Shown: positions 1,380 to 36,503 of the stretch, in pieces
Position numbering within the stretch: position 1 is the stretch's first letter
Layout: each line of letters begins with the position of its first letter
Assembly (NCBI GenBank): GCA_900258555.1
Contig: LT984854.1
Coordinates: 1,905,239 to 1,969,238, forward strand
Direction: 5' to 3'
Source: an uncultured Desulfobacterium sp.
GTDB taxonomy: Bacteria > Desulfobacterota > DSM-4660 > Desulfatiglandales > Desulfatiglandaceae
Length of the DNA stretch: 64,000 bases
Program-made: the position numbers and the translations under genes
The notes under the pieces: model-generated
Told to the model about the DNA's origin: nothing
The model's input: the letters and a program-made list of their open reading frames with translations, nothing else
The model's database searches: none

Positions 1380-2867
1380 TTATGATTCCATCATAACAGG
1401 AAGAAGGATTTTGAAAGTTGTCCCTTTCCCTTCCACACTTTCCACATCAATGGAGCCATGGTGGGCATCCACTACACCTTTTACAATGGAAAGACCAAGC
1501 CCTGTACCCATAATATCACGGGTCTTAGGGCTCTTTACCCGATAAAACTTTTCAAAGATTTTTGGCAGTTCTTCAGGGGCGATGCCCACCCCTGTATCCT
1601 TTACTTTTATTTCAATGTAATCACCGGCATTCCTCGCCGTGACATTGACATCTCCCCCGTCTGGAGAGTAATTAATGGCATTGCTGATGAGGTTATTAAA
1701 GATTTCTTCCATATTTTTAGGATCGGAGTGAACCGGTTTAAGGTCTTCACAAGAAAAAGTGAGATTGATCCCCTGTTTTTTTGCCCTTGGCTCGAGTAAC
1801 GCAACAGTATCCTCAATGATCTTACGCAGGTCTGTCGGTACAAAATGTCGGACATATTGCCCCGCCTCAATCTTTGCCACATCGAGAAGATCATTAATCA
1901 GTGCAAGCAGTGCGTCAATTTTTTTTACTCCCCTGTTGATAAATTCCGTCTGTTTTTCACCCAAAGGACCGGCCAGGCCCTCAAGGATCACACTGTTTAA
2001 TTGTCTTATTGATACGAGCGGACTGCGAAGCTCATGCGCGACCATATTGACAAAGTCTGATTTCATCTGATCAAGCTGTTTAAATGCACTTATATTCTCA
2101 AGAACGGTTACAGCACCGACAACGCCTGAATCCGGTCCAAACACAGGAGCTGAAATCGCTCTTAAATAATAGTTCCTTGTCTGAATTTCCTGAGAAATAC
2201 ATTCATTATCCGACAGGTCATCATCCAGTATGTTTTTCAGGGTGTTGATCAGGGCCTCGTCCTCGATGAGTTCGTTTGCGGGAAGGGGATTTGAGATCTG
2301 TTGTGTCAAACCCAGCAGCCTCATTATAGCAGGATTTGAAAGGACCACCTCCATGTTTCGGTTGGTCACGATCACGCCATTAGCCATATAATTAATGATG
2401 GTTTTCAACCGGCTTTTTTCAAGATTAAGGTCGTAGAGATTTCGAATATTTTCTTTCTGCAGTTGCCAGGCCTTCTGCTCGAGCCTTCTTTTATCCGCAG
2501 CGCGGTTGATTATCGCAAGAAAATGTTCGATCTGAAACGGTTTTGTTATGAAATCGTATGCCCCCTTTTTCATGCATGCCACTGCCGTGTCAACAGTGCC
2601 GTGTCCGGTAATGATAATTACAGGTACATCCGGATATTTTTCAACCGTGACCTTGAGCACCTCTTCTCCGCCAAGGATGGGCATTTTGAGATCAAGGAGT
2701 AGGATTGATACATTATCTTTTTCAAGGATATCAAGAGCAATCTTGCCGTTTTCCGCTCCAAGGACATCAAACCCTTTGGAGTTCAGCACTCGTGTGCATC
2801 CTTCCCTGATCGCCTTTTCATCATCAGCAACCAGAATCCGAATAATATCTTTCTCATTCATGATCAA
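1380..2867 (-). CDS. hybrid receiver-PAS-histidine kinase
   Basis: REC (ILVADDE, LLDLKMP), PAS-like middle, H-box (VAHELRSPL), N/G boxes (NLISNAINY, DTGVGI, GTGLGLSI). Abuts the downstream regulator start at 1379/1380. Confidence 0.85.
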   Translation of the reverse strand: MIMNEKDIIRILVADDEKAIREGCTRVLNSKGFDVLGAENGKIALDILEKDNVSILLLDLKMPILGGEEVLKVTVEKYPDVPVIIITGHGTVDTAVACMKKGAYDFITKPFQIEHFLAIINRAADKRRLEQKAWQLQKENIRNLYDLNLEKSRLKTIINYMANGVIVTNRNMEVVLSNPAIMRLLGLTQQISNPLPANELIEDEALINTLKNILDDDLSDNECISQEIQTRNYYLRAISAPVFGPDSGVVGAVTVLENISAFKQLDQMKSDFVNMVAHELRSPLVSIRQLNSVILEGLAGPLGEKQTEFINRGVKKIDALLALINDLLDVAKIEAGQYVRHFVPTDLRKIIEDTVALLEPRAKKQGINLTFSCEDLKPVHSDPKNMEEIFNNLISNAINYSPDGGDVNVTARNAGDYIEIKVKDTGVGIAPEELPKIFEKFYRVKSPKTRDIMGTGLGLSIVKGVVDAHHGSIDVESVEGKGTTFKILLPVMMES

Positions 2868-4843
2868 TCCAATCCTATAAATACAGGTTCATCGGTTGAA
2901 AACTCCTGCTCTTTAAATTCAAAGGGCAGTTCTATTGTAAAAACGGTTCCTCCTCCAGGGGGACAGTCAAAGGAAATCTTCCCTCCATGCAGCTTTATAA
3001 TATTTTGAGATATGCTGAGCCCCAGACCGGTGCCTGATCCAACGGGCTTTGTAGTGAAAAAAATCTCAAATATCTTGTCCCTAAGTTCAACCGGAATACC
3101 AGGCCCTGTATCTGAGACCTTTATAACAAAAACAGAATTATCCCGGTTGCATTTTACCTTAATGCCTAAAGTCCCTTTTGATTCCATGGCGTGTGCGGCA
3201 TTTATAAACAGGTTGGTAAAGACCTGTTGCAGTTGCCCCATGTCGCCCAACATTTCGGGCATGCTGGCCTCAATGTCCTTTTCAACTGTTATGTCTTGAA
3301 AAATGGCCTGGTTTATAAGGAGACTAAGACACTTGTTGATAAGGTATTCCAAACTGAAGGAAGAGGTCCTGCCAACAGACTGGCGGCTGAACTCGAGCAG
3401 CTCTGCAACAATTTTCTTGCACCTCAGTGTCTGGTCAATAATTTCCTGAACATCACTAATGCGTTCAGGCTGATTTTTAAGGTCTTCCTTTAGAAGTTCA
3501 GCATAAATAAGCGCTCCGGATAGAGGGTTGTTTATCTCATGGGCTACACCAGCTGCCATTCTCCCTACTGAAGCGATCTTTTCTGACTGCACCAGTTGCA
3601 GATGTGCATCTTCGAGGTCCCTGCGCATCTTGAATATCTCTCGCATGTCAGTGAAAACCCCTACGCTCCCGATCTCTTTTCCATCTATCGTGATAATAGA
3701 GGCAGACAGTGTAACAGGTATCTCTTCACCGTTTTTGGTCTTAACGCTCATAGCTGTCGGATTAAGTCTGCCTACAGGACCATACTCACTGCTTCGCATT
3801 TTCTGCATGTTTTCCTTAGCCACATCCATGTCATAGAAAGTACTCAGATGACCTCTTTTTATAATGTCTTCTGCAGAATGACCCGTCAACCTTTCCATCC
3901 CCTCGTTAAAAATCAAGACATTGCCTTTTGTGTCCACAACGACAATGCCGTCCACAGTGCTTTGAATCACATTTTCAAAAAATTTATTGGATTTCTCTAC
4001 TTCCCTTTCAAGCTTGGCCCTTTCAGTAACATCCCTCGACACCTCCAATATTTGAATAAGCCTTCCGTTGTCATTAAAAATTGGGGCTATAGTTATTACC
4101 TCAAAGCGCGTTTCTCCATATTCGTCCTTAAACTCCCTCAGTGTACTGATGCTTCCCTTATGTTCAAGATCTGATATACTGTCTTCCAGGTGGCATATCC
4201 GGCCTTCCTCCTTACAGGATTTTTCCAGATGATACCTTAACTGATAGCAATGATTGCCGGTAATAACCTTATCACCCAGCTTGAATTCATTTAAAAATGT
4301 CTTATTGACCATATCAACAGTCTTATCCAGGTTGACCACCATGATGCGATATGGAAGTGAGTCCAGGATCATCTGCATCTTTTTTTTGCTATTGAGTTCA
4401 TAGCTCTTCCGTTCTTTTTCAAGTTCGGTCTTTTCCACCTCGGTCTGAAGCAGTTCCCATATTACAGGTGCTGCCACATGGTCCAGGATAGCCACTCCGG
4501 GCGACCTCGAGTTATAAAGCTGATCCCTTATCTTTTCCGAGCCTGTGATCTCGATAAGCATGTTTATATTTTTGAGAGAAAAAAGATCTCTGAAATCGCT
4601 GGTGGTATAAAGCCCTATTTCTCTGGCATAAACAATGCCGGGTGCCTGCTGATTTTCATCAGACACTCCCAGAATTTTCATGTTCATCCTTGCCAGACGA
4701 TAACTGTCAAGGATTTCGAGCAGATTACGGCATGCCTTTCCGCCGCCGACAATAGCAACATTGAGGGGCACACCTGCCTCCCTGCCCCTGATTATCTCAA
4801 GCGCACTGTTAATGTCTGCGCCGTTTAAGCCATCGTTTTTCAT
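2864..4843 (-). CDS. sensor histidine kinase with Rossmann-like N-terminal domain and PAS domains
   Basis: ORF 2864..4888. I prefer the ATG at c4843 (MKNDGLNG), which abuts the stop of the upstream small ORF. N-terminal VAIVGGGKACRNL motif, Cys patch (HCYQLRYHLEKSCKEEGRICH), PAS, H-box (VAHEINNPL), HATPase (DTGPGIP, GTGLGLSI). Confidence 0.8.
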   Translation of the reverse strand: MKNDGLNGADINSALEIIRGREAGVPLNVAIVGGGKACRNLLEILDSYRLARMNMKILGVSDENQQAPGIVYAREIGLYTTSDFRDLFSLKNINMLIEITGSEKIRDQLYNSRSPGVAILDHVAAPVIWELLQTEVEKTELEKERKSYELNSKKKMQMILDSLPYRIMVVNLDKTVDMVNKTFLNEFKLGDKVITGNHCYQLRYHLEKSCKEEGRICHLEDSISDLEHKGSISTLREFKDEYGETRFEVITIAPIFNDNGRLIQILEVSRDVTERAKLEREVEKSNKFFENVIQSTVDGIVVVDTKGNVLIFNEGMERLTGHSAEDIIKRGHLSTFYDMDVAKENMQKMRSSEYGPVGRLNPTAMSVKTKNGEEIPVTLSASIITIDGKEIGSVGVFTDMREIFKMRRDLEDAHLQLVQSEKIASVGRMAAGVAHEINNPLSGALIYAELLKEDLKNQPERISDVQEIIDQTLRCKKIVAELLEFSRQSVGRTSSFSLEYLINKCLSLLINQAIFQDITVEKDIEASMPEMLGDMGQLQQVFTNLFINAAHAMESKGTLGIKVKCNRDNSVFVIKVSDTGPGIPVELRDKIFEIFFTTKPVGSGTGLGLSISQNIIKLHGGKISFDCPPGGGTVFTIELPFEFKEQEFSTDEPVFIGLD

Positions 4844-5164: not shown

Positions 5165-5211
5165 TACAAAAAAGCCCGGAAGGTTGTCTGTTCTTCAGAC
5201 AACCTTCCGGG
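5165..5211 (-). terminator. rho-independent terminator after metF
   Basis: Perfect 16-bp stem (cccggaaggttgtctg / cagacaaccttccggg), 5-nt loop, then a U-run on the minus strand (A-run 5167-5173 on plus). Confidence 0.75.
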
Positions 5212-5391
5212 CGAGACTATAGACCGATAAGATCTTTTTTGGCAATTGAAATGTCGGAATACGATGGGTTTACACTGGGCTGGCATTGTCATTCCTCTGT
5301 CAGCTTGCAGCAGATACCACACGCTACGGGCAAGCCTGTTACCGGGGCCGGCTTTTACAGCCGACCCCTCCCACATTCCGTTTTGATGTTT

Positions 5392-6315
5392 TTAGACTAC
5401 GGGCCTTGGAAGGACTCCTGCCATCTTGGCAATTTCGGGCACCCTGTGTTCCCATTCTATGGCCATGAGATGAACGCCTGCCACCCCTTCCATCTCCTTA
5501 AACTCCTGGATCTGTTCCACAGCGATCTTGATGCCTTCCTCAGCAGCCTTCCCCTTTCCGGCACCCTTAACCCGTTCAATCAATTCGTCAGGGACATCCA
5601 TGCCCGGTACTGAGCCTGCCATGTATTTCGCCATACCGACACTCTTCAATGGTGTTACACCAGCCAGGATATAACACTTTTCTGTAAGGCCCATGTCCAC
5701 CGCCCTCTTCATAAACTCCCTGAACCTGTCCATATTGTAGATGCACTGGGTTTGAATAAAATCCGCACCCGCCGCTATCTTTTTTGCAAGCCTAAGCACC
5801 CTCCACTCATAAGGCTCGGCAAAGGGATTGGCGGCAGCGCCGATAAACATCTTTGGTGCCTCATCCAGTTTATTGCCGCTTAAAAAGATGCCCTCGTCAC
5901 GCATCTGCTTTACCATGCCTATCAGCTGTATAGAGTCTATGTCGAATACCGACTTTGCCATAGGGTGATCGCCAAAACTCTGATGGTCACCTGAAAGACA
6001 GAGCATATTCTTGATACCGTGGGTGCTTGCACCCAAGATATCGCTCTGCATGGCGAGCCTGTTACGATCGCGGCATACCATCTGGAAATTGGGCTCAAGC
6101 CCCTCCTGGATCAATATTAAAGAGGCGGCCCAGCTTGACATGCGGACCACTGCGGTTTGATTATCCGTGATGTTTACGGCATCAACATTACCCTTTAAAA
6201 AAGCGGCCTTTTTCCTCACCTCTTCTGCATTGGCTCCCCTGGGAGGACCCAGCTCGCCTGTAAATGCGAAGTGACCGGCGGACAATACCTTTTCCAGATT
6301 GCTTTCTGATTTCAT
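5392..6315 (-). CDS. metF: methylenetetrahydrofolate reductase, acetogen/Wood-Ljungdahl type
   Basis: 307 aa with typical MetF N-terminus (FAFTGELGPPRG..., NITDNQTAVVRMSS). GAGGAAG RBS upstream. Follows metV. Confidence 0.9.
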   Translation of the reverse strand: MKSESNLEKVLSAGHFAFTGELGPPRGANAEEVRKKAAFLKGNVDAVNITDNQTAVVRMSSWAASLILIQEGLEPNFQMVCRDRNRLAMQSDILGASTHGIKNMLCLSGDHQSFGDHPMAKSVFDIDSIQLIGMVKQMRDEGIFLSGNKLDEAPKMFIGAAANPFAEPYEWRVLRLAKKIAAGADFIQTQCIYNMDRFREFMKRAVDMGLTEKCYILAGVTPLKSVGMAKYMAGSVPGMDVPDELIERVKGAGKGKAAEEGIKIAVEQIQEFKEMEGVAGVHLMAIEWEHRVPEIAKMAGVLPRPVV

Positions 6316-6347
6316 TTTAACTTCCTCTCAGATGATAATGGCTGATC

Positions 6348-7028
6348 CTATTTTTCTGCACTATTCTCTGAAGTCTTATACCCCGGCTGGATAACCGTCC
6401 TTGGCTTCTGGTTTTGCCAATCCTGGACAGGGGTAATTTTCAATATGTTGTCAAGCCTGTTCTGTTTTGACAGACGTTCATAAATCATATACCAGGCACA
6501 GGGCTGATCTTTACTGATTTCACAACTGCCTTTGTTGGTTCCTCCGCACGGTCCGTTATAAAGGCCCTTGGCGCACATGGTCACAGGGCAGATGCCTGCG
6601 GTCAGCCCAAGCACGCAACTGCTGCATGATCGACACCTCTCCTCATACCAGCCTACGTCCTGATTGACGCCTATGAAGGTGGTGTCCACACCGGGGAACA
6701 CCGGCTTTTCCGGGTATCTTTCAGCCAGGAACTGGATGCCGGCGCCACAGGCCAGGGACAAAACCGCATCATAATCTCCCACCATTGAATCCAATGCCTC
6801 AAGGTATTCCCGGTCGCACTGCCTCTCAATGGTGATAGCGCCAAGTTCAATTGGGTTATCATCCAGCCTTCTTGCCATATCGAGCTCGGCGTTTAAAACA
6901 GCGACTTCCTTTTCACCTCCAGCAAGGCAAACCGCCACGCAGGTTCCGCAACCCGCAGTAAGAACCTTCTTATAGTCCTTCAGGAAATCTTTTATTTCAT
7001 CAAAGGGTTTTCTTTTGGCAACTATCAT
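6348..7028 (-). CDS. metV: methylene-THF reductase Cys-rich partner subunit
   Basis: 226 aa with Cys-rich motifs (GCGTCVAVC, CRSCSSCVLGLTAGICPVTMCAKGLYNGPCGG). Lies directly upstream of metF. Confidence 0.8.
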   Translation of the reverse strand: MIVAKRKPFDEIKDFLKDYKKVLTAGCGTCVAVCLAGGEKEVAVLNAELDMARRLDDNPIELGAITIERQCDREYLEALDSMVGDYDAVLSLACGAGIQFLAERYPEKPVFPGVDTTFIGVNQDVGWYEERCRSCSSCVLGLTAGICPVTMCAKGLYNGPCGGTNKGSCEISKDQPCAWYMIYERLSKQNRLDNILKITPVQDWQNQKPRTVIQPGYKTSENSAEK

Positions 7029-7075
7029 ACTTCCTCCTGTTGTCGCACTTGGCCACAGATATGCCGCCCTGATTA

Positions 7076-7489
7076 TTAATGTTGCTTCAAAGGATTTGGC
7101 CCGAGCGCCTTGATGTTTTCCGCCATCTCCCGCGCATAGGCTGCAAAGGTTGGGCCTTCACCGGAAGAAAGGTTATACATCCTTACCCTGTCTCCTTCAA
7201 TCCCTATTTCTTCAAGAAGCCTCCTGACGTGATTGACCCTTTCACGCGCCCTCAGGTTTCCTTCATTATAATGGCACGCCCCTTCCAGGCAGCCCACCGC
7301 ATAAACTCCATCCGCGCCCTTCTGGATAGCCCTTAAAAGATGCATCACATCAACCTTTCCTGTGCAAGGCACCCGGATTATCTTAATGTTGGAAGGATAG
7401 TCAAGTCGCATGGAACCTGCCAGGTCCGCGGCAGAGTATCCTCAGAATTCACAGCAAAATGCTATGATTGTCGGTTCAAAATCCGTCAT
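7076..7489 (-). CDS. mvhD: MvhD-like electron-transfer protein, selenoprotein (Sec at codon 16)
   Basis: ORF 7076..7411 extends in frame through TGA c(7442..7444) to ATG c(7487..7489): [32 protein letters not shown]... Its start overlaps the hdrA stop (TGATG). Later motif VGCLEGACHY. Confidence 0.8.
7417..7444 (-). promoter_or_regulatory. UGA(Sec) plus candidate SECIS hairpin of mvhD-1
   Basis: RNA UGA-GGAUACU-CUGCC-GCGGACCU-GGCAG. The 5-6-bp stem starts 7 nt after the UGA, closer than usual for a bacterial SECIS. Confidence 0.4.
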
Positions 7490-10400
7490 CACATACCCCC
7501 TGCCAGCAATGCATCAATTTTGCATGCCAGTTGATCATCTTCATAAAAGCTCAGTTTAATCGTCTGCCTTGGGCATATGCTTGCGCAGCTCCCACACCCG
7601 TGACACAATGCGTCATCAATCTCTATAATCCCCAACTCCGTGTTAAACATCGGGACACCGAAAGGACAGGTACGGACACATGTCAGACATTTTACGCAGT
7701 GTTCTGTATCCACCTTGGCTGTGATCGCCGATAGTTTTATCTCCGGCTTTGCGAGGAATGTCGTAGCCCTTGACGCAGCAGCCTGGGATTGGCTGATTGC
7801 CTCTGAGATAAGCTTGGGCCCATGCGCTGTTCCACACAGAAAGATTCCCTCGCCAGGCATGTCAACAGGCCGCAGCTTTACGTGCGCCTCAATAAAATAG
7901 CCCTCCTGGTTACGGTTTAGCTTCATGATGCCGCTTAGCTCGTCAGTATCCGCCGCCCTCATCCCAGCACTCAATGCCAGGAGGTCAGCTCGGATCGTAA
8001 TATCCCGTTGAAGTATATGATCCTTTACGGATACAAGTATTCCGGCGGCAGATGACTTAACATCCGGAGGCGCATCATTTTCAAATCTGATAAAGATAAC
8101 TCCCCTTTCCCTGGCCTCTTTGTAAAAATCCTCAAGCAATCCATATGTTCTAATATCCCGGTAGAGCACAAAGACCTGGGCGTCCGGATTTTGCCTCTTT
8201 ATATGTAAGGCGTTTTTTACGGCGTTCTGGCAGCATATGCGGGAGCATTCCTGCATCTCATCATTCCTGGACCCCACACACTGGATCATCACAACCGTTT
8301 TGAGGTCTGATGCGCCCTTGTCTTCCAACCTGTCCGCCAGTTCAACCTGGGTGACAACCCTGTCATCCTCGCCATAGAGATATTCTTTCGGGTGATATTC
8401 TGTCGCACCGGTAGCCACAATGATGACACCGTGTTTTATTGTACGCTTTTCTTTCTTCGATCCGATTTCCACATCGGTGGAAAAGTTGCCTTTATACCCA
8501 CCAAAACCAGTGACCCTGGCCTCGGTAATGACCTCCACCTTTTCATGGCCTTTAACCTGGCCGATCAGTTTATCCAGATATGGCCGGATGTCTCCGCCCT
8601 CAATGGTATGGTGCAGACTTCTTGAAAAGCCCCCCAGTTGGGCGTCTTTTTCCACCAGAACAACATCAAATCCCTGCTTTCCCAAGTTCAGCGCGGCGTT
8701 CATGCCTGCAACTCCGCCCCCTATCACCAGGGCCTTTTGTGTTACGGATATCACCTTTTGTGCAAGAGGTTTCAGTGTTCCGGCCCTAGCAACGGCCATT
8801 CTTACCAGGTCCTTGGCTTTTTGAGTGGCCAAATCCGGCGCCTTGGAATGTATCCAGGAGTTCTGGTTCCTGATATTGGCCATTTCGAACAGGTATCTGT
8901 TCAGGCCGCACGCCTCCAATGTTTCCATAAACATCGGTTCATGGGTCTTGGGACTGCATGAGGCGACCACCACACGATTAAGATTATGCTCTTTAATCTT
9001 TTCCTTTATTTTTTCCTGTGTGTCCTGGGAACAGGTAAACAGGTTTGAATCGGTAAATACAACATTTGGAAGTCTCCCAGCGTATTCCTGCACTGAAGGG
9101 ACATCAACAATTCCTCCTATGTTGATGCCGCAGTTACACACAAAGACACCGATCCTTGGTTCCTGATCACTTACATCCTTTTGTTCAGGGATTGTAACGG
9201 TCTTGGTCTCAGTTCCTCTCGCCTCTGAAAGATCAGCTCCTGCAAGACATGCTGCGGCACTGGCCTCTGTAACTGAGCCGGGTATGTCTTTCGGCCCCTG
9301 AAACACCCCGCATGTATATATACCAGGCCTGGATGTCTCAACAGGGGCGAACGGATCGGTTGCAGCAAAATTATAGTTGTTGAGTTCAACATTAAGTCTG
9401 TTTGCAAGCTCCACAGCACTGTCGGGTATTGTTAAACCAACTGACAAGACCACCATGGAAAAGATTTCTTCTTTTCTCTCGCCGCTTTCATCAACATATT
9501 TGACAATAAGGTCACCTGTCTCTGGGACTTCACTTACCGTATGGACACGGGCCTTGACATAACGTACACCTTCTTTGTCCCTCGCCCTGAGGAAATACTT
9601 TTCATAATCTTTGCCAAAGGTCCTCATATCCATGTTAAATATAACAGCGTCAAGATCTCCATGTATATGCTCCTTTGCAATCATCGCCTCTTTTGTGGCA
9701 TACATGCAGCATACGGAAGAGCAATAACCATTGCCGCATCTGTTGATATCCCTTGAGCCCACGCACTGAAGCCATGCAATACTCTTGGGCTCTTCCCTGT
9801 CAAGAGGCCGCATGACGTGACCGAAGTATGGGCCGCCCGCAGAAAGTATCCTTTCAAAGCCCTCACTGGTCACCACGTTGGGGAATTTTCCATAGCCCAG
9901 AAAATCAAGATTTGACGGATCATATCCTTTTGTTCCTGGAGAAAGGATAACAGAGCCCACTGTAACCTTTGTTTCCTCTTCCTTGTCGTCGTACTTGACC
10001 GCCTTTGCAAGACAGGTGTTTTCGCACAGGCCGCATCCGATACAGGCTTCGGTATCAATGGCATAGGCAAGGGGCACAGCCTGGGCATATTCAATATAGG
10101 TAGCCCTTCTGTCATTCATGCCCTTGTTGATCTCGTTGACAGCGGCCACAGGACAACGCCTGGCGCAGTCACCGCATCCGGTGCATTTTACCGGATCAAT
10201 GTAGCGGGGGTGTTTTGTGAGGGTGACGGAAAAATTTCCCGGCTCACCTTCAATGGATTTTACTTCACTGTTTGTTATCAGGTTTATGTTCAGATGCCGG
10301 CCGACCTCGACCAGTTTGGGTGAGATAACTCACATGGTGCAGTCATTGGTCGGAAATGTCTTGTCCAGCCTGGCCATCAGGCCGCCTATGGTAGGAGATT

Positions 10401-10518
10401 TTTCTACCAGATATACGTTGTAATCCGAATTAGCGAGATCCAGTGATGCCTGCATGCCGGCAATGCCGGCGCCGACAACCATTACTGACCCACTTTTATT
10501 TGTTGTAGCTGATCCCAT
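7489..10518 (-). CDS. hdrA: HdrA-like FAD/FeS oxidoreductase, selenoprotein, about 1009 aa
   Basis: ORFs 10330..10524 and 7489..10149 share a frame. Translation across TGA c(10330..10332) is stop-free: [21 protein letters not shown]...[12 protein letters not shown]...[10 protein letters not shown]. Two Rossmann motifs ([18 protein letters not shown]) and several 4Fe-4S Cys motifs. Start set at the ATG after the AGGGGAG RBS. Confidence 0.85.
10297..10332 (-). promoter_or_regulatory. UGA(Sec) plus candidate SECIS hairpin of hdrA-1
   Basis: RNA CUGGUCG-AGGU-CGGCCGG: 7-bp stem with 2 G-U pairs and a GG-containing loop, starting 15 nt after the UGA. The 21-nt core is identical to the one in hdrA-2. 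Confidence 0.6.
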
Positions 10519-10628
10519 TATCACTCCCCTAAATAATTGACGATATTTGATTGATTGATGATTTAAGATTTTTTCTCAGTCCGGGATCTTGCCTGTGTCA
10601 ATCAATGCGCATTCGTCATTCTTCAATC

Positions 10629-11378
10629 TTAAAGCGCTGCAAACACCGGTTTGCTGTCTTCCATGCCAGTGAATGCCACCATGCTTGTCCTTTCCATATC
10701 CGCTAGGAGGTAGGAAATCCGAAGTACATCTACCCCGGTTTTTTTACTTATTTGCCTCACGTTGGTGCAGTCCTGCTTAATAGCAAGATAAATCAAATTC
10801 TTGTGATATTCCCGTTCAAGCATGTCATAGAGAACGGATTCATACTTTTTAACTTCCCACTTCCTGCCGTAGACATCACCTTTGGTGGTGATTTTGACTT
10901 CTTTACCGACCAGCCATCGCAGGGTTTCACCCTCAAGGGTCCTTTCAGCCGCTGAAAGCTGCATATCAAACATCTCTGAATCGAACCTTCCCAGACTCTT
11001 AATGGAATCGTTGACTTCAGTCGCAATCTGTACAAAACGCTGCGCCTCAGCGGATGATACCCAGGCAAAATGGAGTCTTTCTCTGCCGATGCCTGCGATA
11101 TCTAGAAGCTTCTGTGTCAAAAGGAGCTTTTTTTCAGCCTGTACATTACCCTCCAGGTAATGGCAGTCGCCGAAATGTCACCCGCCCACCATGACGCCGT
11201 CACATCCACCTTTGAGAGCCTTGACAATGAAGACCGGGTCAATACGACCGGAACACATCACCCGGATTGTTCTAAGGCTGGATGGGTATTGCAACCTGGA
11301 GACTCCTGCCAGGTCAGCGCCTGCATATGCACACCAGTTGCAAAGAAAAGCAACAATCTTTGGTTCAAAATCTGTCAT
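10629..11378 (-). CDS. mvhD: MvhD-like protein with C-terminal extension, selenoprotein (Sec at codon 67), about 249 aa
   Basis: ORFs 11178..11378 and 10629..11120 are in frame across TGA c(11178..11180): ...DGVMVGG-U-HFGDCHYLEGNVQAEKKLLLTQKLLD... N-terminus MTDFEPKIVAFLCNWCAYAGADLAG. Confidence 0.8.
11144..11180 (-). promoter_or_regulatory. UGA(Sec) plus candidate SECIS hairpin of mvhD-2
   Basis: RNA CAUUACC-UGGAG-GGUAAUG: perfect 7-bp stem with a GG-containing loop, starting 15 nt after the UGA. Confidence 0.6.
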
Positions 11379-11426
11379 ATCTTATTCCTAATCATTATTA
11401 TGTTAACAGATCATACACAACTAAAC

Positions 11427-14400
11427 TCAGGCCACCGCACTTATAGCCGCTTCAATCTGAGCATGCCGGAAATGGAGCATGTCAATAGCTTTTTGCGGAC
11501 AGGATGAAGCGCACAAACCACATCCCTTGCAAGATGCAGGGATATTTTTAGCACGTTTTCCTTTGCCCTCAACTTCCTCCAACACTATAGCGCCGAATGA
11601 ACATATCTCAGCACAAAGACCACATCCGATGCATTTTTCCACATCCACACGTGATGCAAGGGGAGAGACCTGAATAGATGCCTTTGAAAGCACTGTTGCC
11701 GCCCTGCCTGCTGCGGCAAGGGCCTGTTCAATGCTTTCATCAACGGGTTTCGGATAGTGAGCCAGGCCGCACAGGAATATACCATCAGAGGCAAAATCAA
11801 CCGGCCTCAGTTTTGCGTGGGCCTCCATAAAAAATTTCTCTTCGTTCAGAGGAAGCTTATATGATGATGCAAGATGTTCATTCTCAGAGGGTTCAATAGC
11901 GGTCTTGAGGTTGATCATATCAGCCTTTATCAACAAATTCTGTTGAAGTATAGGATCAAACACTTCCACTACAAGACCTTTTGCACCTTCTGTTACCTTT
12001 GGTTTATTTTCCCGTGTATATCGGATAAAGATAACGCCTTTTTCACGGGCCTTTTTATAAAGGATTTCTCTCTCTCCAAAGGTTCTCATATCCCTGTAGA
12101 GAATAAATACGTTGGCCTCGGGTTTATCTTCCTTTATGGAGATTGCCTGCTGAACTGATGATGTGCAGCAGATCCTTGAGCAATATGGCCTTTGATCATC
12201 CCTTGATCCGACACATTGTATAAATACGATATTATCGGCCTTTTTAAGTTTGACCGGGTCTTTTTCGAGTTCATGCCAGAGTGTTACATTTGAATTTTTT
12301 CCATACAGATATTCATCTGTACCTGCGGCCTGGCCGCCTGTGGCGATAATGACCGCACCGTGTTTGACGGTTTTTGTGATATCTTTACTCCTTATTTCTG
12401 TCTCAAAATTGCCGACAAACCCGAAGGCATTAACAACTTCTGCATCCAATATCATGTCAATGCCCGGATGTTTTCTCACCCTGTCGGCCAGTTCGGCAAC
12501 AAACCCTTTGATATCCTCTCCACCCCAAGACCTTGAAAGGTCCTTAGCTGCACCTCCTGGTTCAGATGACTTATCTACAATTGTTACAGGAAAGCCCTGA
12601 TCTGCAAGACTGACGGCAGCCGTCATTCCGGCAACACCAGCTCCTATAACAAGCGCGGATTTGTTGACATCAACGGATAAATCCGGGATGGGCTCCAGCA
12701 GGGCAACGCGGGCAACCGCCATTCGCACCAAATCCTTGGCCTTTTCCGTTGCCTTTTCCTTTTCATCGGAATGACACCAGGTGCATTGGTTCCTGATGTT
12801 AGACATTTCGAACAGATAAGGATTTAGACCTGCATTACGAATGGTCTCCTGGAAAAGGGGCTCGTGTGTCCTCGGCGTACAAGCGGCCACGACAATACGA
12901 TTAAGATTATGTTCCTTGATCACCTCTACCATCTTTTCCTGGGTATCCTGGCTGCATGTAAATAGATTGTCCTCTACGTATACAACATCCGGCAGGTTTT
13001 TGGCATATGCGGCAATTGCAGGGACATCGGCAATACCGCCGATATTGACACCGCAGTTACATACAAAAACGCCCACACGGGGCTTTTGACCCTGAACATC
13101 ATTCTCCTGTGGAAATGCCTTTTCCTTAACCAGAGTTCCCCTGGCAGGTGCCAGACCGACGCCGGCGGAACAAGCCGCAGCACTTGCCTCCATTACAGAC
13201 TGGGGTATGTCTTTGCAGCCCTGGAGCACACCTGCCACATAAATGCCTTTACGAGATGTGGAAACAGGGGACAGACTGCTCGTATTGATAAAGTTATGCT
13301 CGTTAAGCTCAACATCCAGTCTTTTTGCCAAGTCAATGGCCGAGGAGGCCGGTTCCATACCGACAGAAAGAACAACCATATCGAACGTCTCGACTTGAAT
13401 ATTACCATTTTCATCTGCATACCTTAAGGAAACGTCCTTGTTTTCAGGGTCTTCGTCAATTGTATGAATTCTGCAACGGATAAACCTTACTCCCTGCTCC
13501 TTCTTTGCGCGTTCATAATACTTTTCAAAGTCCTTTCCGTGTGTCCGCATGTCCATAAAAAAGATAGCAGTATCCAGGTCATAATCTGCATGTTCTTTGG
13601 AGATAACCGCCTCTTTGATGGCATACATACAGCAGACAGAAGAACAATAAGCATTGTCGCACTGATTGATATCCCGCGATCCAATGCACTGCAGCCAGGC
13701 AATCTTTTTAGGCTCTTTCTTGTCGGATGGCCGCACAAGATGACCCTGGTTCGGGCCTGTTGCGCTCAAGAGGCGTTCATATTCCATGCTGGTGACAACA
13801 TTTGCAAATTTTGTATACTGGTATGTCGCAAAATTATCGGGCTTAAAAGGCTCAAAGCCGGGTGCCAATATCACGGAGCCCACATTGATTGAAATGTCCT
13901 CTGTTTTCTGGGAGTGTGTTTCAAGTGTCACTGCCTTGGCCTTGCAGGCCTTGACGCACTCGTAGCACTCACAACAACCACCGCAATTAAGACAGCGTTC
14001 GGCCTCTTCCTTTGCCGATTTTTCATCTGCTGTGAGGTTGACTTCCGCAAAGCTTTTATGCCTTTTGCCAAGGGACAGGGTCGGCGCCTTTAGGCGGTGT
14101 TTCAGTGGTTCATCATCACGGATTTCAACCCAATTTGTACCCATTGGGGGTTCATCCTGCCATTCTTGAGGTAACTGTTCACCCCGAAGGTATTTTGCAA
14201 TGTACTTGGCGGCCCTTTTACCTCCATCCACCGCCTCTATTACTGTAGCAGGCCCGGTAATAACATCACCACCTGCAAATATTCCAGGCGCATTAGTCTG
14301 CAATGTTTCAGGGTTTACTACGAGGAGTTTCCATTTAGAGACCTCTATACCTGATTGATCACCAATAAAGGCAAGATCCGGCTCCTGCCCTATGGCAGGA

Positions 14401-15857
14401 ATTATATGCTCCGCCTCTATTGTGAATTCGGAACCTTCTATGGGGATCGGTTTGCGCCTACCGCTGGTATCCGGTTCTGTCAAACGGGTTTTGATGCACT
14501 CAATGCCGGTCACCTTTCCATTTTTATTAACAACCCTTACAGGGGCCGCCAGAAAATGGATCTTTACCCCTTCTTTTTCCGCCTCTTCAATTTCCTCAGG
14601 TTCGGCCAGCATCTCTGCTTTAGAGCGGCGGTAAACGATATGAGACTCATCCGCACCCAGTCGAAGGGCTACTCGCGCACCGTCCAGGGCAGAATGGCCG
14701 CCACCAATAATCACGGCCTTTCCCTTGAGTTCTTTCAGGTCTCCAAGATGCACCTCCCGAAGAAAAGATGTAACATCACTGACACCCTTTGACTCATCTC
14801 CCTGAATGTGAAGTCTTAATCCCTTCCATGCGCCGGCTCCTATAAAAACGGCCTTTGCACCGTGTTGCTGCAAGTCCCTGATGGTAAGATCCTTGCCTAT
14901 GGCTGTATTGGTATGGATTTCTATGCCGTATCTTTTAAGGTTATTGATTTCCGCATCCAGCACAGAACGGGGCAGGCGATGTTCGGGAATTCCGTAACGC
15001 ATCATTCCGCCTGCCTCAGGCATCGCCTCATAAACGCTTACCTGATATCCCTCCAACGCAAGAAAATAGGCGGCGGTAAGTCCTGCCGGACCTGAGCCTA
15101 TTATCGCCACCTTTTCATCTTTTTTAATTATTTGTGGTACTGGTATGTCATTAAGGTCCGTATGATCAGCGGCAACCCGTTTAAGTTCTCTTATGGAAAT
15201 CGGCTCGTCTATTTCGAGACGGCGGCAACTCTTTTCGCAGGCATGGGGGCAGACACGGCCAAGGGTGCCGGGAAACGGCAGATCACGCATTATGATTTCA
15301 ATCGCCTCCCGAAATTTTCCCTGTTTCACCATCTGAACGTAGCCCTGGACATTCAGATTGGCCGGACAAGCCATTCTGCATGGCGCCGTGTCCCGTTTGT
15401 CAATAGCGAATGCTCCTGGAATAGCCTGTGCGTAAGGCTTATAGGCCGCCTTTCGCCCAACCAGTTCCATATCATATTCACTGGGCCTGACTACCGGGCA
15501 AACCTCTGCACAGTCCCCACAGGCAGTGCACGCTCCACTGTCTATAAAACGCGGTGCCTTTTGAATAGTTACTTGAAAGTTGCCCTCTTCCCCAGTAATA
15601 TTTTCAACGTTTGAGCAGGTGTGAAGTTGTATATTTGTATGCCGGCCGACCTCGACCAGCTTAGGAGAGATAATTCACATTGCACAGTCGTTTGTGGGAA
15701 AGGTCTTGTCAAGCTGCGACATCACCCCGCCGATGGCCGGAGATTTTTCTACCAGATGTACGAAAAAACCCGAATCAGCAAGATCAAGGGCCGCCTGCAT
15801 TCCGGCAATGCCGCCACCAACAACCATGACAGACCCGGTTGGTTTATCTTGAACCAT
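11427..15857 (-). CDS. hdrA: HdrA-like oxidoreductase with inserted GltD/NfnB-like NAD(P)H module, selenoprotein, about 1476 aa
   Basis: ORFs 15675..15884 and 11427..15470 are in frame across TGA c(15675..15677): [21 protein letters not shown]...CTACGDCAEVCP...MELVGRK. GltD-type motifs: CPANLNVQGY, GRVCPHACEKSCRR, IIGSGPAGLTAAYFLA, IIGGGHSALDGA, IFAGGDV. HdrA motifs then resume. Start at the ATG after the CAGGAGA RBS; c15884 is the alternative. Confidence 0.85.
15642..15677 (-). promoter_or_regulatory. UGA(Sec) plus candidate SECIS hairpin of hdrA-2
   Basis: Same CUGGUCG-AGGU-CGGCCGG hairpin, 15 nt after the UGA. Synonymous differences from hdrA-1 stop exactly where the hairpin begins. Confidence 0.6.
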
Positions 15858-16208
15858 ATGTATTGTCTCCTGCTTGTAAGGCATTTAAATTTTAAGAGGA
15901 ATTATTTTCCGTTATGAGATCGAAATGGCAAAAAACCATTGGATGAAAACACGGGCGGGTAATTTTGACTCACATGAGGCATCTTTCCCCTACATCCTCT
16001 TTTCGGCCGTATTACATGCCATAATAAATACTTGGATGTCAAGGAAAAATATGAAAAGAAGAAGATACAGGAATAAATGACCCATTCCAAGTATGAGTAT
16101 TAAGTCCAATTTTCCCCTTTAATTATCCGAGGAAGTCTATAACTGACTCCCCACTATCTACAGTTACCATGACATGCATAATAATTTACTGATATTATTA
16201 GGCAATAA

Positions 16209-35950: not shown

Positions 35951-36128
35951 TTGGCCCCGATCATTCCTATAACACCAACCCATCGGCATGAGACTCTCAG
36001 TATAACCTGTTGGAAACCTTGGATAGTCGGAAATAAGGCCTTCATGGTTTGATTCCAAACTTCTAAGGATTAAAAACGAACATGACTTCAGAGTTGCAGA
36101 TTATTTGGCTATGTGTTAATAAAATTGC

Positions 36129-36503
36129 ATGAAAAAAAGCATCCCACTTCATATCCGCTCAAAGATCTGGATTGAGGACAATGAAGGAGAGGTCGTATTC
36201 GGGCTTGGCCGGTTGAAGATCCTCGATGCCATAGAGAGGCTTGGCTCAATCCATGGAGCGGCCAAAGAACTGAAGATGAGCTATCGGGCCATCTGGGGCA
36301 GGATTAAGGCGACAGAAGATCGCCTTAATCGTCAATTGCTGGTGCGGAGTATCGGGGGGGCCACCGGCGGAGGCTCAGAGTTGACCCCTTTTGCCCTGTC
36401 CCTGCTTGAGGGCTTCCGCCGGCTCCAAGGGAGCATAATAGCCCAATCAAATCAGGAGTTCGAGAAGGTTATGTCCTCAATACTTAATCGTACAGAATCC
36501 TGA
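36129..36503 (+). CDS. ModE-N-terminal-like winged-helix regulator (no TOBE domains)
   Basis: 124 aa with GRLKILDAIERLGSIHGAAKELKMSYRAIWGRIK, typical of the ModE/LysR-type HTH. Confidence 0.7.
   Translation: MKKSIPLHIRSKIWIEDNEGEVVFGLGRLKILDAIERLGSIHGAAKELKMSYRAIWGRIKATEDRLNRQLLVRSIGGATGGGSELTPFALSLLEGFRRLQGSIIAQSNQEFEKVMSSILNRTES

Follow-up and report, generated by a model that had tools for sequence, protein, structure and literature searches.

A six-gene hdrL-mvhD-hdrA-mvhD-metV-metF operon with four apparent selenocysteine UGA codons in a Desulfobacterium-like sulfate reducer

A six-gene operon of a Desulfobacterium-like sulfate reducer, in the order hdrL-mvhD(long)-hdrA-mvhD(short)-metV-metF, lies on the minus strand of a 64-kb stretch of DNA (the window) from an NCBI record labelled 'uncultured Desulfobacterium sp.'. 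In the open-reading-frame track, the first four genes appear as seven fragments, and in each gene a single in-frame TGA codon separates the pieces: c15675-15884 and c11427-15470 for hdrL, c11178-11378 and c10629-11120 for the long mvhD, c10330-10524 and c7489-10149 for hdrA2, and c7076-7411 for the short mvhD, whose 5′ piece of 16 codons (c7445-7489) was not called. At all four TGAs, the reading frame is open on both sides and is the same frame. The coordinates and joins given in a preliminary description of this DNA were reproduced, and the peptides reported there across the junctions, including AFCCEF*GYSAADLAG, matched exactly on re-translation, with the family motifs restored; its labels MvhD-1 and MvhD-2 run opposite to the gene order. 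The expectation that gene callers would fragment the operon is borne out by the NCBI annotation of the exact locus (SPD75714-SPD75721), which is split and contains a 1347-aa HdrA, 66-aa and 163-aa 'conserved hypothetical' proteins and a 111-aa VhuD. The main use of the result is the correction of annotation.

Each of the joined genes includes one putative Sec codon: the HdrL-type hdrA gene (11427..15884, 1485 codons, identified by its open frame and Pfam), the long mvhD (10629..11378, 249 codons, Pfam FlpD at 3e-50), hdrA2 (7489..10518, 1009 codons, a fused HdrA-HdrA′) and the short mvhD (7076..7489, 137 codons, Pfam FlpD at 2e-48). Pfam places the products in the HdrA-type flavoprotein and FlpD/MvhD families, and the short MvhD also matches MvhD/VhuD entries in the PDB at 5e-39 to 5e-35. 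They are followed by metV (6348..7028), encoding the 226-aa small FeS subunit of a MetVF-type methylene-THF reductase (PF12225, 1e-35), and metF (5392..6315), encoding a 307-aa methylenetetrahydrofolate reductase (PF02219, 3e-39, with matches to MTHFR structures in the PDB). All six genes are on the minus strand, with intergenic gaps in operon order of 48, 110, -1, 47 and 32 nt, and the ATG of the short mvhD overlaps the stop codon of hdrA2 (UGAUG). A hairpin resembling an intrinsic terminator (5174..5212, minus strand; a 17-bp stem followed by UUUUUU), located 179 nt downstream of metF, probably marks the 3′ end of the operon.

The four UGA codons, all on the minus strand, are at codon 70 of HdrL (15675..15677) in the CxxU motif FPTNDC-A-M-U, codon 67 of the long MvhD (11178..11180) in GG-U-HFGDCHY, codon 63 of HdrA2 (10330..10332) in FPTNDC-T-M-U, and codon 16 of the short MvhD (7442..7444) in the CxxU motif C-E-F-U. 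Alignment with Cys-type HdrA and MvhD homologues placed all of them at Cys columns. The HdrA column, which had been assigned to a Cys of the family motif, corresponds to Cys197 of the HdrA in PDB 5ODC (chain A) and is Sec in 9SFI_A; Sec197 is named in the M. maripaludis HdrA (PMC13518236). Both MvhD columns are Sec in 9SFI_K (VhuD), where, as elsewhere in the deposited 9SFI sequence, Sec is written as 'X', and are Cys in Cys-type homologues. As had been proposed, each MvhD TGA also stands opposite a Cys codon in the other paralogue, with TGT in the long and TGA in the short gene at column 16, and TGA in the long and TGC in the short gene at column 67. Judged from sequence comparison, the four UGAs are almost certainly genuine selenocysteine codons at which gene callers have split the genes.

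The possibility that the TGAs are true stops, in pseudogenes or through sequencing or assembly errors in Cys-type genes, is consistent with the way gene callers and the public annotation read them, and selA, selB, selD and tRNA-Sec genes were not found within the 64-kb window. Against this, an identical four-TGA operon with MetVF is present in at least eight other, independently assembled Desulfobacterales genomes (L003-L007, L009, L011, L012), where the TGAs are at the same columns and protein identity before and after them is 60-90%, and three further loci (L008, L010, L060) hold a partial or frameshifted version. The Logan assembly of SRR7473847, which is independent, also has these TGAs. 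In 80 related genome loci, the three Cys/Sec columns hold 116 TGA, 319 TGT or TGC and 3 other sense codons, and the observation that the breaks are always TGA extends to this wider set, in which neither TAA nor TAG occurs at any of the 435 Cys-column sites. By column, TGA and TGY together account for 140 of 141 sites in HdrA (51 and 89, with 1 other), 146 of 149 at MvhD column 16 (26 and 120, with 2 other) and all 149 at MvhD column 67 (39 and 110). Stopping at these codons would moreover truncate HdrA within its FAD-binding fold and deprive MvhD of Cys residues near its cluster. Conservation of the TGAs effectively refutes the true-stop reading, which we consider extremely improbable.

A second alternative is that the UGAs are read through without selenocysteine, by reassignment of TGA to Trp or Gly, by a near-cognate tRNA or by a Cys-charged tRNA(Sec), giving Cys or Trp. 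JGI gene calls do give W for homologous TGAs (P0001-P0003, P0014), although these calls, on short contigs of ~1 kb, most plausibly arose as an artefact of the translation table used. TGA is the ordinary stop of 16 of the 43 Pfam-supported genes in the window, hdrL and hdrA2 among them, which rules out a global reassignment. Except for the three other sense codons, homologues without TGA have Cys, the solved archaeal proteins have Sec, and a hairpin of SECIS type is conserved downstream of each site, leaving read-through of this kind very unlikely. Under selenium scarcity, the Sec pathway may occasionally insert Cys instead, which would still need the same machinery.

Just 3′ of each UGA, the mRNA is predicted to fold into a SECIS hairpin of the bacterial type whose apical loop contains G. 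The published bacterial model specifies a 3-9 nt loop with G in its first two positions, a spacing of 16-37 nt and an MFE no higher than -7.5 kcal/mol (PMC13188914). In hdrL, the hairpin GCUGGUCG-AGGU-CGGCCGGC (15641..15660, minus strand; 8-bp stem, -14.0 kcal/mol) places its loop 22 nt after the UGA, as does CUGGUCG-AGGU-CGGCCGG in hdrA2 (10297..10314, minus strand; 7-bp stem, -10.2 kcal/mol). The long mvhD structure (11132..11175, minus strand; 60-nt MFE -17.6 kcal/mol) carries the upper hairpin CAUUACCU-GGA-GGGUAAUG (c11144-11162) atop a lower stem, with its loop 23 nt after the UGA. In the short mvhD (7393..7443, minus strand; 60-nt MFE -17.1 kcal/mol), the upper hairpin GGACCU-GGC-AGGUUC (c7413-7427), with its loop at 20 nt, sits inside a longer stem; alone it reaches -5.6 kcal/mol, short of the -7.5 threshold. 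All four hairpins therefore fit the consensus when this lower stem is counted, and three of the four sites pass a strict test for a contiguous consensus-type hairpin at -7.5 kcal/mol or lower, the fourth passing with its lower stem. The presence of a hairpin after each UGA was thus upheld, and the 7-15 nt distance first given for it was not: conserved upper stems begin 14-15 nt after the UGA, apical loops lie at 20-23 nt, and the weaker lower stems in both mvhD genes begin at 1-2 nt.

In the genes of the window, the same strict test is passed after 4% of sense codons drawn at random and after 8.6% of Cys codons, and hairpins occur after the four UGAs more often than expected by chance. The hdrL hairpin nucleotides are near-invariant in Sec-type homologues while the flanking codons vary, and the long mvhD hairpin is kept in 37 Sec-type sequences with synonymous variation suppressed. 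Hairpin codons show an entropy of 0-0.76 bits in Sec-type genes compared to 0.94-2.5 bits for the same amino acids in Cys-type genes, and folding is more stable in Sec-type sequences (P = 1e-6, 0.014 and 1.5e-9), both contrasts being inflated because the two sets differ in phylogenetic breadth; the codons flanking the hairpins, the sole internal control, are equally variable in both groups. A second class of HdrA paralogues carries a hairpin of different sequence in the same place (GGAUGUC-GGUC-GACAUCC). Base pairs in the stems hardly vary within a class, which leaves little classical covariation, and support at the RNA level comes from suppressed synonymous change and these alternative hairpins, which indicate conservation beyond the demands of the protein sequence. 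Single-sequence folding z-scores are modest (-2.2, -2.2, -0.8 and -2.1), and a search of Rfam returned no matching family for the hairpins. By the standard bacterial mechanism, SelB-GTP carrying Sec-tRNA(Sec) would bind each hairpin and, when the UGA reaches the A site of the ribosome, supply Sec there in competition with release factor 2, which it would outdo, and selenium would be incorporated at all four codons.

Both HdrA proteins are tandem HdrA-HdrA′ fusions. The first half of HdrL has the TrxR-like flavin domain of HdrA without the archaeal N-terminal FeS domain, and an NfnB/GltD-like NAD(P)H module (4YLF_B, 1e-92; 5JCA_L, 2e-91, among NfnB/NfnI structures) is placed within its inserted-ferredoxin domain; the second HdrA-like half has the N-terminal-type FeS domain and a C-terminal ferredoxin. 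In HdrA2, the first half has the Sec codon at the Cys197 column and the inserted ferredoxin domain, and the second has the N-terminal FeS domain and C-terminal ferredoxin without Cys197. The Sec residue would thus be kept by the first half only and the N-terminal FeS domain by the second only, with Sec as the second residue of CxxU beside the bifurcating FAD, at the archaeal Cys/Sec197 position. Residue 197 has been reported either to coordinate the partner HdrA's N-terminal [4Fe-4S] cluster or to be part of a redox-active (selenenyl)sulfide. Each MvhD adaptor would have Sec at one conserved Cys position near its [2Fe-2S] cluster. The long MvhD comprises an FlpD/MvhD domain (residues 8-130) and a winged-helix-like C-terminal extension of ~120 aa, for which weak wHTH matches were found in 9 of 15 homologues.

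Given this domain content and gene order, the products, with MetVF and the NfnB-like module, are most likely the subunits of a methylene-THF reductase that has no HdrBC and works by flavin-based electron bifurcation or confurcation. In the Wood-Ljungdahl pathway, it would connect CH2=/CH3-THF with NAD(P)(H) and ferredoxin; we infer both the composition and the reaction of this complex. We put the probability of the joint reading, a six-gene operon with four SECIS-directed Sec-UGA codons encoding such an enzyme, at about 0.9. The Sec codons could be real and the six genes still not one unit, the Hdr/Mvh proteins serving another acceptor, for instance DsrC or a disulfide, beside metVF. The operon lacks the hdrB and hdrC of the characterised Moorella complex, three loci (L013, L014, L025) have the hdrA-mvhD-hdrA-mvhD block without MetVF, 110 nt separate the long mvhD from hdrA2, and the D. 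autotrophicum HRM2 paper (PMC2702500) ties HdrL paralogues to further partners, DsrABC and Fdh among them. However, the six-gene order is kept in Desulfobacterales and Syntrophobacterales-like genomes (L003-L012, L018, L021, L060), the genes are closely spaced, with one stop codon overlapping the next start and a single strong terminator-like hairpin after metF, similar clusters occur in Chloroflexi and Syntrophoarchaeum, and Moorella MetFV is known to form a physical association with HdrA and MvhD (PMC5861303). Separate units are thus unlikely.

HdrA and MvhD were described at the outset as known selenoprotein families, and precedents in HRM2, Moorella, S. fumaroxidans and M. maripaludis agree; HdrA and FrhD are among the selenoproteins that PMC1794560 gives for Moorella and S. 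fumaroxidans. The accompanying claim of an unusually dense recoding cluster was overstated, since the four-TGA operon recurs in the genomes above and four-selenoprotein-gene operons around hdrA and frhD/mvhD are known (PMC1794560, PMC13188914). Such proteins and operons have been described in Deltaproteobacteria since 2006-2009, and the present case is correct but ordinary because Sec recoding is well known in both families. The earlier deltaproteobacterial operons share hdrA, frhD/mvhD and fused hdrA-hdrA genes with this one but include hydrogenase (FrhA/G) and GlpC, in contrast to the two HdrA, two MvhD and terminal MetVF here. The M. maripaludis HdrA/VhuD (PDB 9SFI/9T1S, PMC13518236; HdrA E = 6e-120) has Sec at the identical three columns (HdrA CxxU, MvhD CxxU and MvhD 'G-U'). 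It differs in its archaeal-type SECIS in the 3′-UTR rather than within the ORF, in both VhuD Sec residues lying in one protein rather than one per MvhD paralogue, and in its 650-aa, homodimer-forming HdrA, which works with HdrBC and hydrogenase rather than as an HdrBC-less fusion.

HRM2, of the same Desulfobacteraceae lineage type, has selABCD and Sec in hdrA1, hdrA2, hdrL1, hdrL3 and mvhD1, 2, 3 and 5, with an mvhD after each hdrA/hdrL gene and HdrL described as an HdrA/glutamate-synthase-like fusion with an NADH site; the available text of that report (PMC2702500), compared by description only, describes no four-Sec hdrL-mvhD-hdrA-mvhD-metVF unit. The Moorella thermoacetica MetFV-HdrABC-MvhD complex (Mock et al. 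2014, as cited in PMC5861303, PMC6085437 and PMC9012536) shares MetF, MetV and MvhD, a double HdrA fusion in which Cys197 and the N-terminal domain complement each other, and the Wood-Ljungdahl role proposed here. It differs in having HdrB/HdrC, one HdrA-MvhD module rather than two, and no NfnB-like NAD(P)H module such as that inside HdrL, and the order of HdrA halves here is the reverse of that given for the ANME and Moorella fusions. In Geobacter metallireducens, according to the available text of a preprint (bioRxiv 10.64898/2026.04.10.717634), BamE, a fused HdrA dimer, has the redox-active pair Cys59-x-x-Cys62, Cys-Cys rather than the Cys-Sec predicted here, and BamDEF has other catalytic partners (tungsten BamB, HydBC-like BamGHI and HdrBC-like BamD). 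BamF is an MvhD-type adaptor with Sec19 near its [2Fe-2S] cluster and is >100 aa longer, with a winged helix that parallels the long MvhD, although here the CxxU-column Sec codon is in the short MvhD and not the extended one.

Seven ORF-track fragments on the minus strand (c15675-15884, c11427-15470, c11178-11378, c10629-11120, c10330-10524, c7489-10149 and c7076-7411), followed by two intact ORFs (c6348-7028 and c5392-6315), make up the hdrL-mvhD-hdrA2-mvhD-metV-metF operon. Reading through the in-frame TGA codons at c15675-15677, c11178-11180, c10330-10332 and c7442-7444 joined the fragments as the preliminary description had proposed, giving uninterrupted frames of 1485 (hdrL), 249 (long mvhD), 1009 (hdrA2) and 137 codons (short mvhD), the last with an uncalled 5′ piece of 16 codons (c7445-7489); the peptides quoted in that description match the joined translations exactly. 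Each joined gene has an ATG start with a Shine-Dalgarno-like sequence before it, and the genes are tightly packed, with intergenic gaps of 48, 110, 47 and 32 nt and a UGAUG overlap between the hdrA2 stop and the short mvhD start. A terminator with a 17-bp stem lies 179 nt past metF. The 76-aa ORF at c5146-5376 overlaps this strong terminator hairpin (c5174-5212), lacks a Pfam match and is unlikely to be a gene. On both sides of the operon lie genes for sigma-54-type response regulators and for PAS/GAF histidine kinases (c18-4888 and c16757-20642). Because such activators suggested one, a sigma-54 promoter was sought upstream of hdrL, with no convincing TGGCAC-N5-TTGC site found and matches at chance level, as were the sigma-70-like matches in the same region.

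Pfam identified the hdrL and hdrA2 products as HdrA-type flavoproteins (Pyr_redox_2, FAD/NAD-binding and 4Fe-4S domains), and the last two genes as MetV (PF12225) and MTHFR (PF02219). The defining HdrA domains, a TrxR-like FAD domain with FPTxDC-x-x-C/U, an inserted ferredoxin domain and a C-terminal ferredoxin domain, are all present and are divided between two fused halves. In HdrA2, the first half matched archaeal HdrA structures over residues 144-567 (phmmer, 6e-120), while the alignment of the second half begins at residue 3 (5e-123). On this domain content, both HdrL and HdrA2 are fused HdrA-HdrA′ "self-heterodimers". HdrL carries an additional Fer4_20 and Pyr_redox_2 segment (residues about 166-555) within its inserted-ferredoxin domain, an NfnB/GltD-like NAD(P)H module (NfnB 4YLF_B, 1e-92; GltD 2VDC_G, 3e-61). 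Because of this insertion, the 1485-aa protein was assigned to the "HdrL" type of D. autotrophicum HRM2, for which the genome report (PMC2702500) describes the same HdrA and GltD-like fusion, a likeness of domain content and description only.

Both MvhD proteins match the full FlpD/MvhD profile (PF02662; 3e-50 for the long and 2e-48 for the short form) and retain all columns of the conserved Cys set (CxxC, C, GC, CHY), with one Sec in each paralogue. The long MvhD (249 aa) has a winged-helix-like C-terminal extension of ~120 aa (c10629-11000), which parallels BamF, an MvhD adaptor that exceeds the usual length by more than 100 aa and contains a wHTH (bioRxiv 10.64898/2026.04.10.717634). The extension is conserved, with weak MarR_2, HTH_24 and HTH_5 matches in 9 of 15 homologues, and genes for winged-helix MvhDs lie between two hdrA genes in loci from Desulfobacterota, Chloroflexi, Bathyarchaeia, Asgard and Thermoplasmata (homologues in L003-L074 of the related loci).

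Alignment with Cys-containing homologues, a check proposed in the preliminary description, placed all four TGAs at Cys/Sec columns, one in HdrA and two (columns 16 and 67) in MvhD. In the M. maripaludis Hdr-Vhu-Fwd structure 9SFI, the residue of the HdrA chain that aligns with the HdrA TGA column is a non-standard "X" (…FPTDDCAM-X-ILAPK…), identified as Sec197 (PMC13518236), and both MvhD columns likewise align with an "X" of the VhuD chain (…CYQ-X-GYGAADLAG… and …VAG-X-KPNEC…). The Cys-type structures 5ODC, 8RVU and 7BKB have Cys at the Sec columns, including Cys197 of 5ODC_A. The three columns were also mapped by tblastn over 80 loci, obtained from one genome-contig scan with the long-MvhD alignment (best match 73%), yielding 116 TGA, 319 TGY and 3 other sense codons. 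TAA and TAG, which had been remarked to be absent from the four breaks, were never found at these columns. TGA, TGT and TGC accounted for 51, 46 and 43 of 141 sites at the HdrA column, 26, 60 and 60 of 149 at MvhD column 16, and 39, 48 and 62 of 149 at MvhD column 67. Reassignment of TGA throughout the genome would also let the four frames be read through; TGA is the terminator of 16 of the 43 Pfam-supported window genes, hdrL and hdrA2 among them, and there is no global reassignment.

The hairpins that had been noted downstream of the UGAs were of the bacterial SECIS type in all four 60-nt segments folded. The bSECIS consensus specifies a 3-9 nt loop with G in the first two loop positions, a 4-16 bp stem, a spacing of 16-37 nt and an MFE of -7.5 kcal/mol or lower (PMC13188914). 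The hairpins are GCUGGUCG-AGGU-CGGCCGGC in hdrL (8-bp stem, loop 22 nt from the UGA, 60-nt MFE -14.0 kcal/mol), CAUUACCU-GGA-GGGUAAUG in long mvhD (8 bp, 23 nt, -17.6 kcal/mol), CUGGUCG-AGGU-CGGCCGG in hdrA2 (7 bp, 22 nt, -13.2 kcal/mol) and GGACCU-GGC-AGGUUC in short mvhD (6 bp, 20 nt, -17.1 kcal/mol). All four satisfy the consensus, the short-mvhD hairpin only with its lower stem; the upper stems alone fold at -14.0, -8.1, -10.2 and -5.6 kcal/mol, respectively. Under a strict contiguous-hairpin model, the chance rate in window genes was 4% for random sense codons and 8.6% for Cys codons. Rfam at the gathering threshold did not find a SECIS family in the window, and a permissive scan of c5000-16200 gave two sub-threshold chance matches and nothing else.

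Stems hardly vary within a class, and conservation of the hairpins was therefore assessed by entropy at synonymous sites and by contrasts between Sec- and Cys-type sequences rather than by classical covariation. Hairpin nucleotides were almost invariant among Sec-type sequences (50 HdrA, 26 MvhD-16 and 37 MvhD-67), while neighbouring wobble positions varied freely. Hairpin codons had an entropy of 0-0.76 bits in Sec-type and 0.94-2.5 bits in Cys-type sequences encoding the same residues, flanking codons were similar in the two groups, and the Sec-type segments folded more stably than the Cys-type ones. A second HdrA paralogue class has a different hairpin, GGAUGUC-GGUC-GACAUCC, a few nt further downstream. 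Judged from these contrasts, the putative RNA element is conserved beyond the requirements of the protein sequence.

The exact order HdrA[TGA]-MvhD[TGY,TGA]-HdrA[TGA]-MvhD[TGA,TGY]-MetV-MetF, with MvhD codons given for columns 16 and 67, recurred in eight further Desulfobacterales/Desulfococcaceae genomes of the 80-locus scan (L003-L007, L009, L011 and L012), and three other loci (L008, L010 and L060) hold partial or frameshifted copies. Two Syntrophobacterales-like loci (L018 and L021) retain two of the four TGAs, and the archaeal homologues (Bathyarchaeia, Asgard and Thermoplasmata) are all-Cys with the sole exception of the Asgard locus L050. We put the probability that the four TGAs are Sec codons at roughly 0.9, this assignment being supported by five independent lines, namely the structures, the Sec/Cys alternation, the synteny, the SECIS-like hairpins and the lack of reassignment.

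Several loci depart from this arrangement. In L050 (Promethearchaeota archaeon DZ3M.289, about 2224-3772), HdrA[TGA] followed by MvhD[TGA,TGA] adjoins an all-Cys hdrA-mvhD-hdrA-mvhD block, and no bacterial-type hairpin lies downstream of its TGAs. In L013, L014 and L025, the second MvhD is [TGC,TGA], with Sec at column 67 instead of 16, and MetVF is absent after the block, which suggests that this double Hdr/Mvh module also works with partners other than MetVF. A paralogous type from other Desulfobacterales (L064, L068-L073, L076 and L079) reads HdrA[TGA]-MvhD[TGY,TGA]-HdrA[TGA]-MvhD-wH[TGA,TGY] with up to four TGAs, has a gene for an NfnB/GltD-like module next, and carries the alternative GGAUGUC-type hairpin in HdrA.

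The window itself encodes no selA, selB or selD by Pfam on essentially all ORFs of at least 150 aa, and no tRNA-Sec was found in it with ARAGORN and Rfam, tRNA-Ser(CGA) being the only RNA gene found, or on 82 related loci with ARAGORN. The related D. autotrophicum HRM2 has selA, selB, selC and selD with at least 31 selenoproteins (PMC2702500). Sec is not discussed in the papers examined on the naphthalene-degrading culture N47. A scan for stop-joined ORF pairs, with Pfam, gave no further split selenoprotein candidates in the window; 36126-36503 and 36534-38180 were rejected as one split gene and are two separate genes.

Experiments have verified HdrA (CxxU) and MvhD/FrhD/VhuD (CxxU, with as many as two Sec) as selenoprotein families (PMC9312934, PMC13188914), and Moorella HdrA and FrhD are listed as selenoproteins (PMC1794560), in agreement with the preliminary description, which had called both families already known. 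Its impression of an unusually dense recoding cluster was overstated: the operon occurs commonly in Desulfobacterales MAGs, and a 2006 report on Deltaproteobacteria already had multiple genes for Sec-HdrA and Sec-FrhD, hdrA-hdrA fusions and four-selenoprotein operons (PMC1794560). Sec-containing HdrA, HdrL and MvhD were described for a Desulfobacterium in 2009 (PMC2702500). An explicit account of the four-Sec hdrL-mvhD-hdrA-mvhD-metVF unit, or of the conserved complementary arrangement of its two MvhDs, [C,U] and [U,C] (residues at columns 16 and 67), was not found in the literature, and each extends known biology only modestly. The case adds a well-conserved bacterial example of Sec at HdrA Cys197 and at both VhuD positions beside MetVF, and leaves existing knowledge on selenoproteins or recoding unchanged.

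By the established bacterial mechanism, SelB-GTP with Sec-tRNA(Sec) would bind the apical loop when the ribosome meets the UGA 20-23 nt upstream, and Sec insertion would compete with RF2. From the literature, the HdrA Sec would be the second member of the CxxU pair beside the bifurcating FAD. The archaeal Cys197 is a ligand of the partner subunit's N-terminal [4Fe-4S] cluster (PMC9012536). Here one fused half lacks the N-terminal domain and the other lacks Cys197, a complementary pattern consistent with the same contact being made within one polypeptide. In the structures of M. maripaludis (PMC13518236) and BamE (bioRxiv 10.64898/2026.04.10.717634), the Cys-x-x-Sec/Cys pair forms a (selenenyl)sulfide, which may relay electrons. 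The MvhD CxxC/U residue, which is Sec19 in BamF (same preprint), would lie near the [2Fe-2S] cluster. Fused HdrA pairs of the same kind have been described for ANME and Moorella (PMC9012536) and for BamE (bioRxiv 10.64898/2026.04.10.717634), although the ANME fusion as described has the opposite order of halves.

Co-localisation of metF, metV, mvhD and hdrA matches the Moorella MetFV-HdrABC-MvhD arrangement (PMC5861303), but HdrBC is absent here: Pfam showed neither a CCG-domain gene nor an HdrC-like one, within the operon or in window ORFs of at least 150 aa. The operon is therefore classed as functionally analogous only, not as a Moorella-type complex. Domain content and gene order, with MetVF, two HdrAA′-MvhD modules and an NfnB-like NAD(P)H site, point to a methylene-THF reductase that would bifurcate or confurcate electrons and would probably serve that step of the Wood-Ljungdahl pathway. 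N47 is reported to oxidise acetyl-CoA through a complete Wood-Ljungdahl pathway (PMC12137691); should the organism be N47, confurcating methyl-THF oxidation would be a sensible step. We offer only tentatively, as a doubtful proposal, a joint reading in which the operon would encode an uncharacterised HdrBC-less enzyme with two Se-dependent HdrA-HdrA′/MvhD modules wired to MetVF, one with an in-polypeptide NfnB-type flavin and hence with two bifurcation-type flavin modules in series; in which methyl-THF oxidation/methylene-THF reduction in complete-oxidising sulfate reducers would be a confurcating/bifurcating step strictly needing selenium; and in which the strictly conserved, complementary [C,U] of the extended winged-helix MvhD and [U,C] of the short MvhD would mark two differently tuned selenol relays.

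The practical value lies in annotation. The public records of this locus (SPD75714.1-SPD75721.1, on a 2.63-Mb contig) are fragmented, as had been expected of standard gene callers, into a 1347-aa HdrA-family protein, "conserved hypothetical" proteins of 66 and 163 aa and a 111-aa VhuD, and MetV also carries the label "conserved hypothetical". The genome is present in the Logan assembly of SRR7473847 as well. JGI calls of four homologues of the protein at c10629-11378 (P0001-P0003 and P0014, on ~1 kb contigs) have W at the Sec column (…GWHFGDCHY…), most likely an artefact of reading TGA with a Mycoplasma-type code, by which selenoproteins are concealed; in P0014 a further W, at "KAGWDG", stands opposite a Cys of the window protein. 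Many metagenomic gene calls likewise truncate or split the four proteins or mistranslate UGA as Trp, and as a result of truncated and split records databases lack key redox residues and FAD-binding N-termini. The enzyme will be under-detected in metabolic reconstructions and in proteome searches, such as those of the N47 culture.

Elsewhere in the window, two sizeable ORFs have no Pfam match, 36534-38180 on the plus strand (548 aa) and c26788-27984 (398 aa), the latter adjoining a 759-aa protein (c24516-26795) with Lon_C and Mg-chelatase-like ATPase domains. The adjacent c20878-21804 (308 aa) and c21890-22942 (350 aa) products each have an N-terminal region of 140-180 aa, without a Pfam match, ahead of a glycine-cleavage H-protein (lipoyl) domain.
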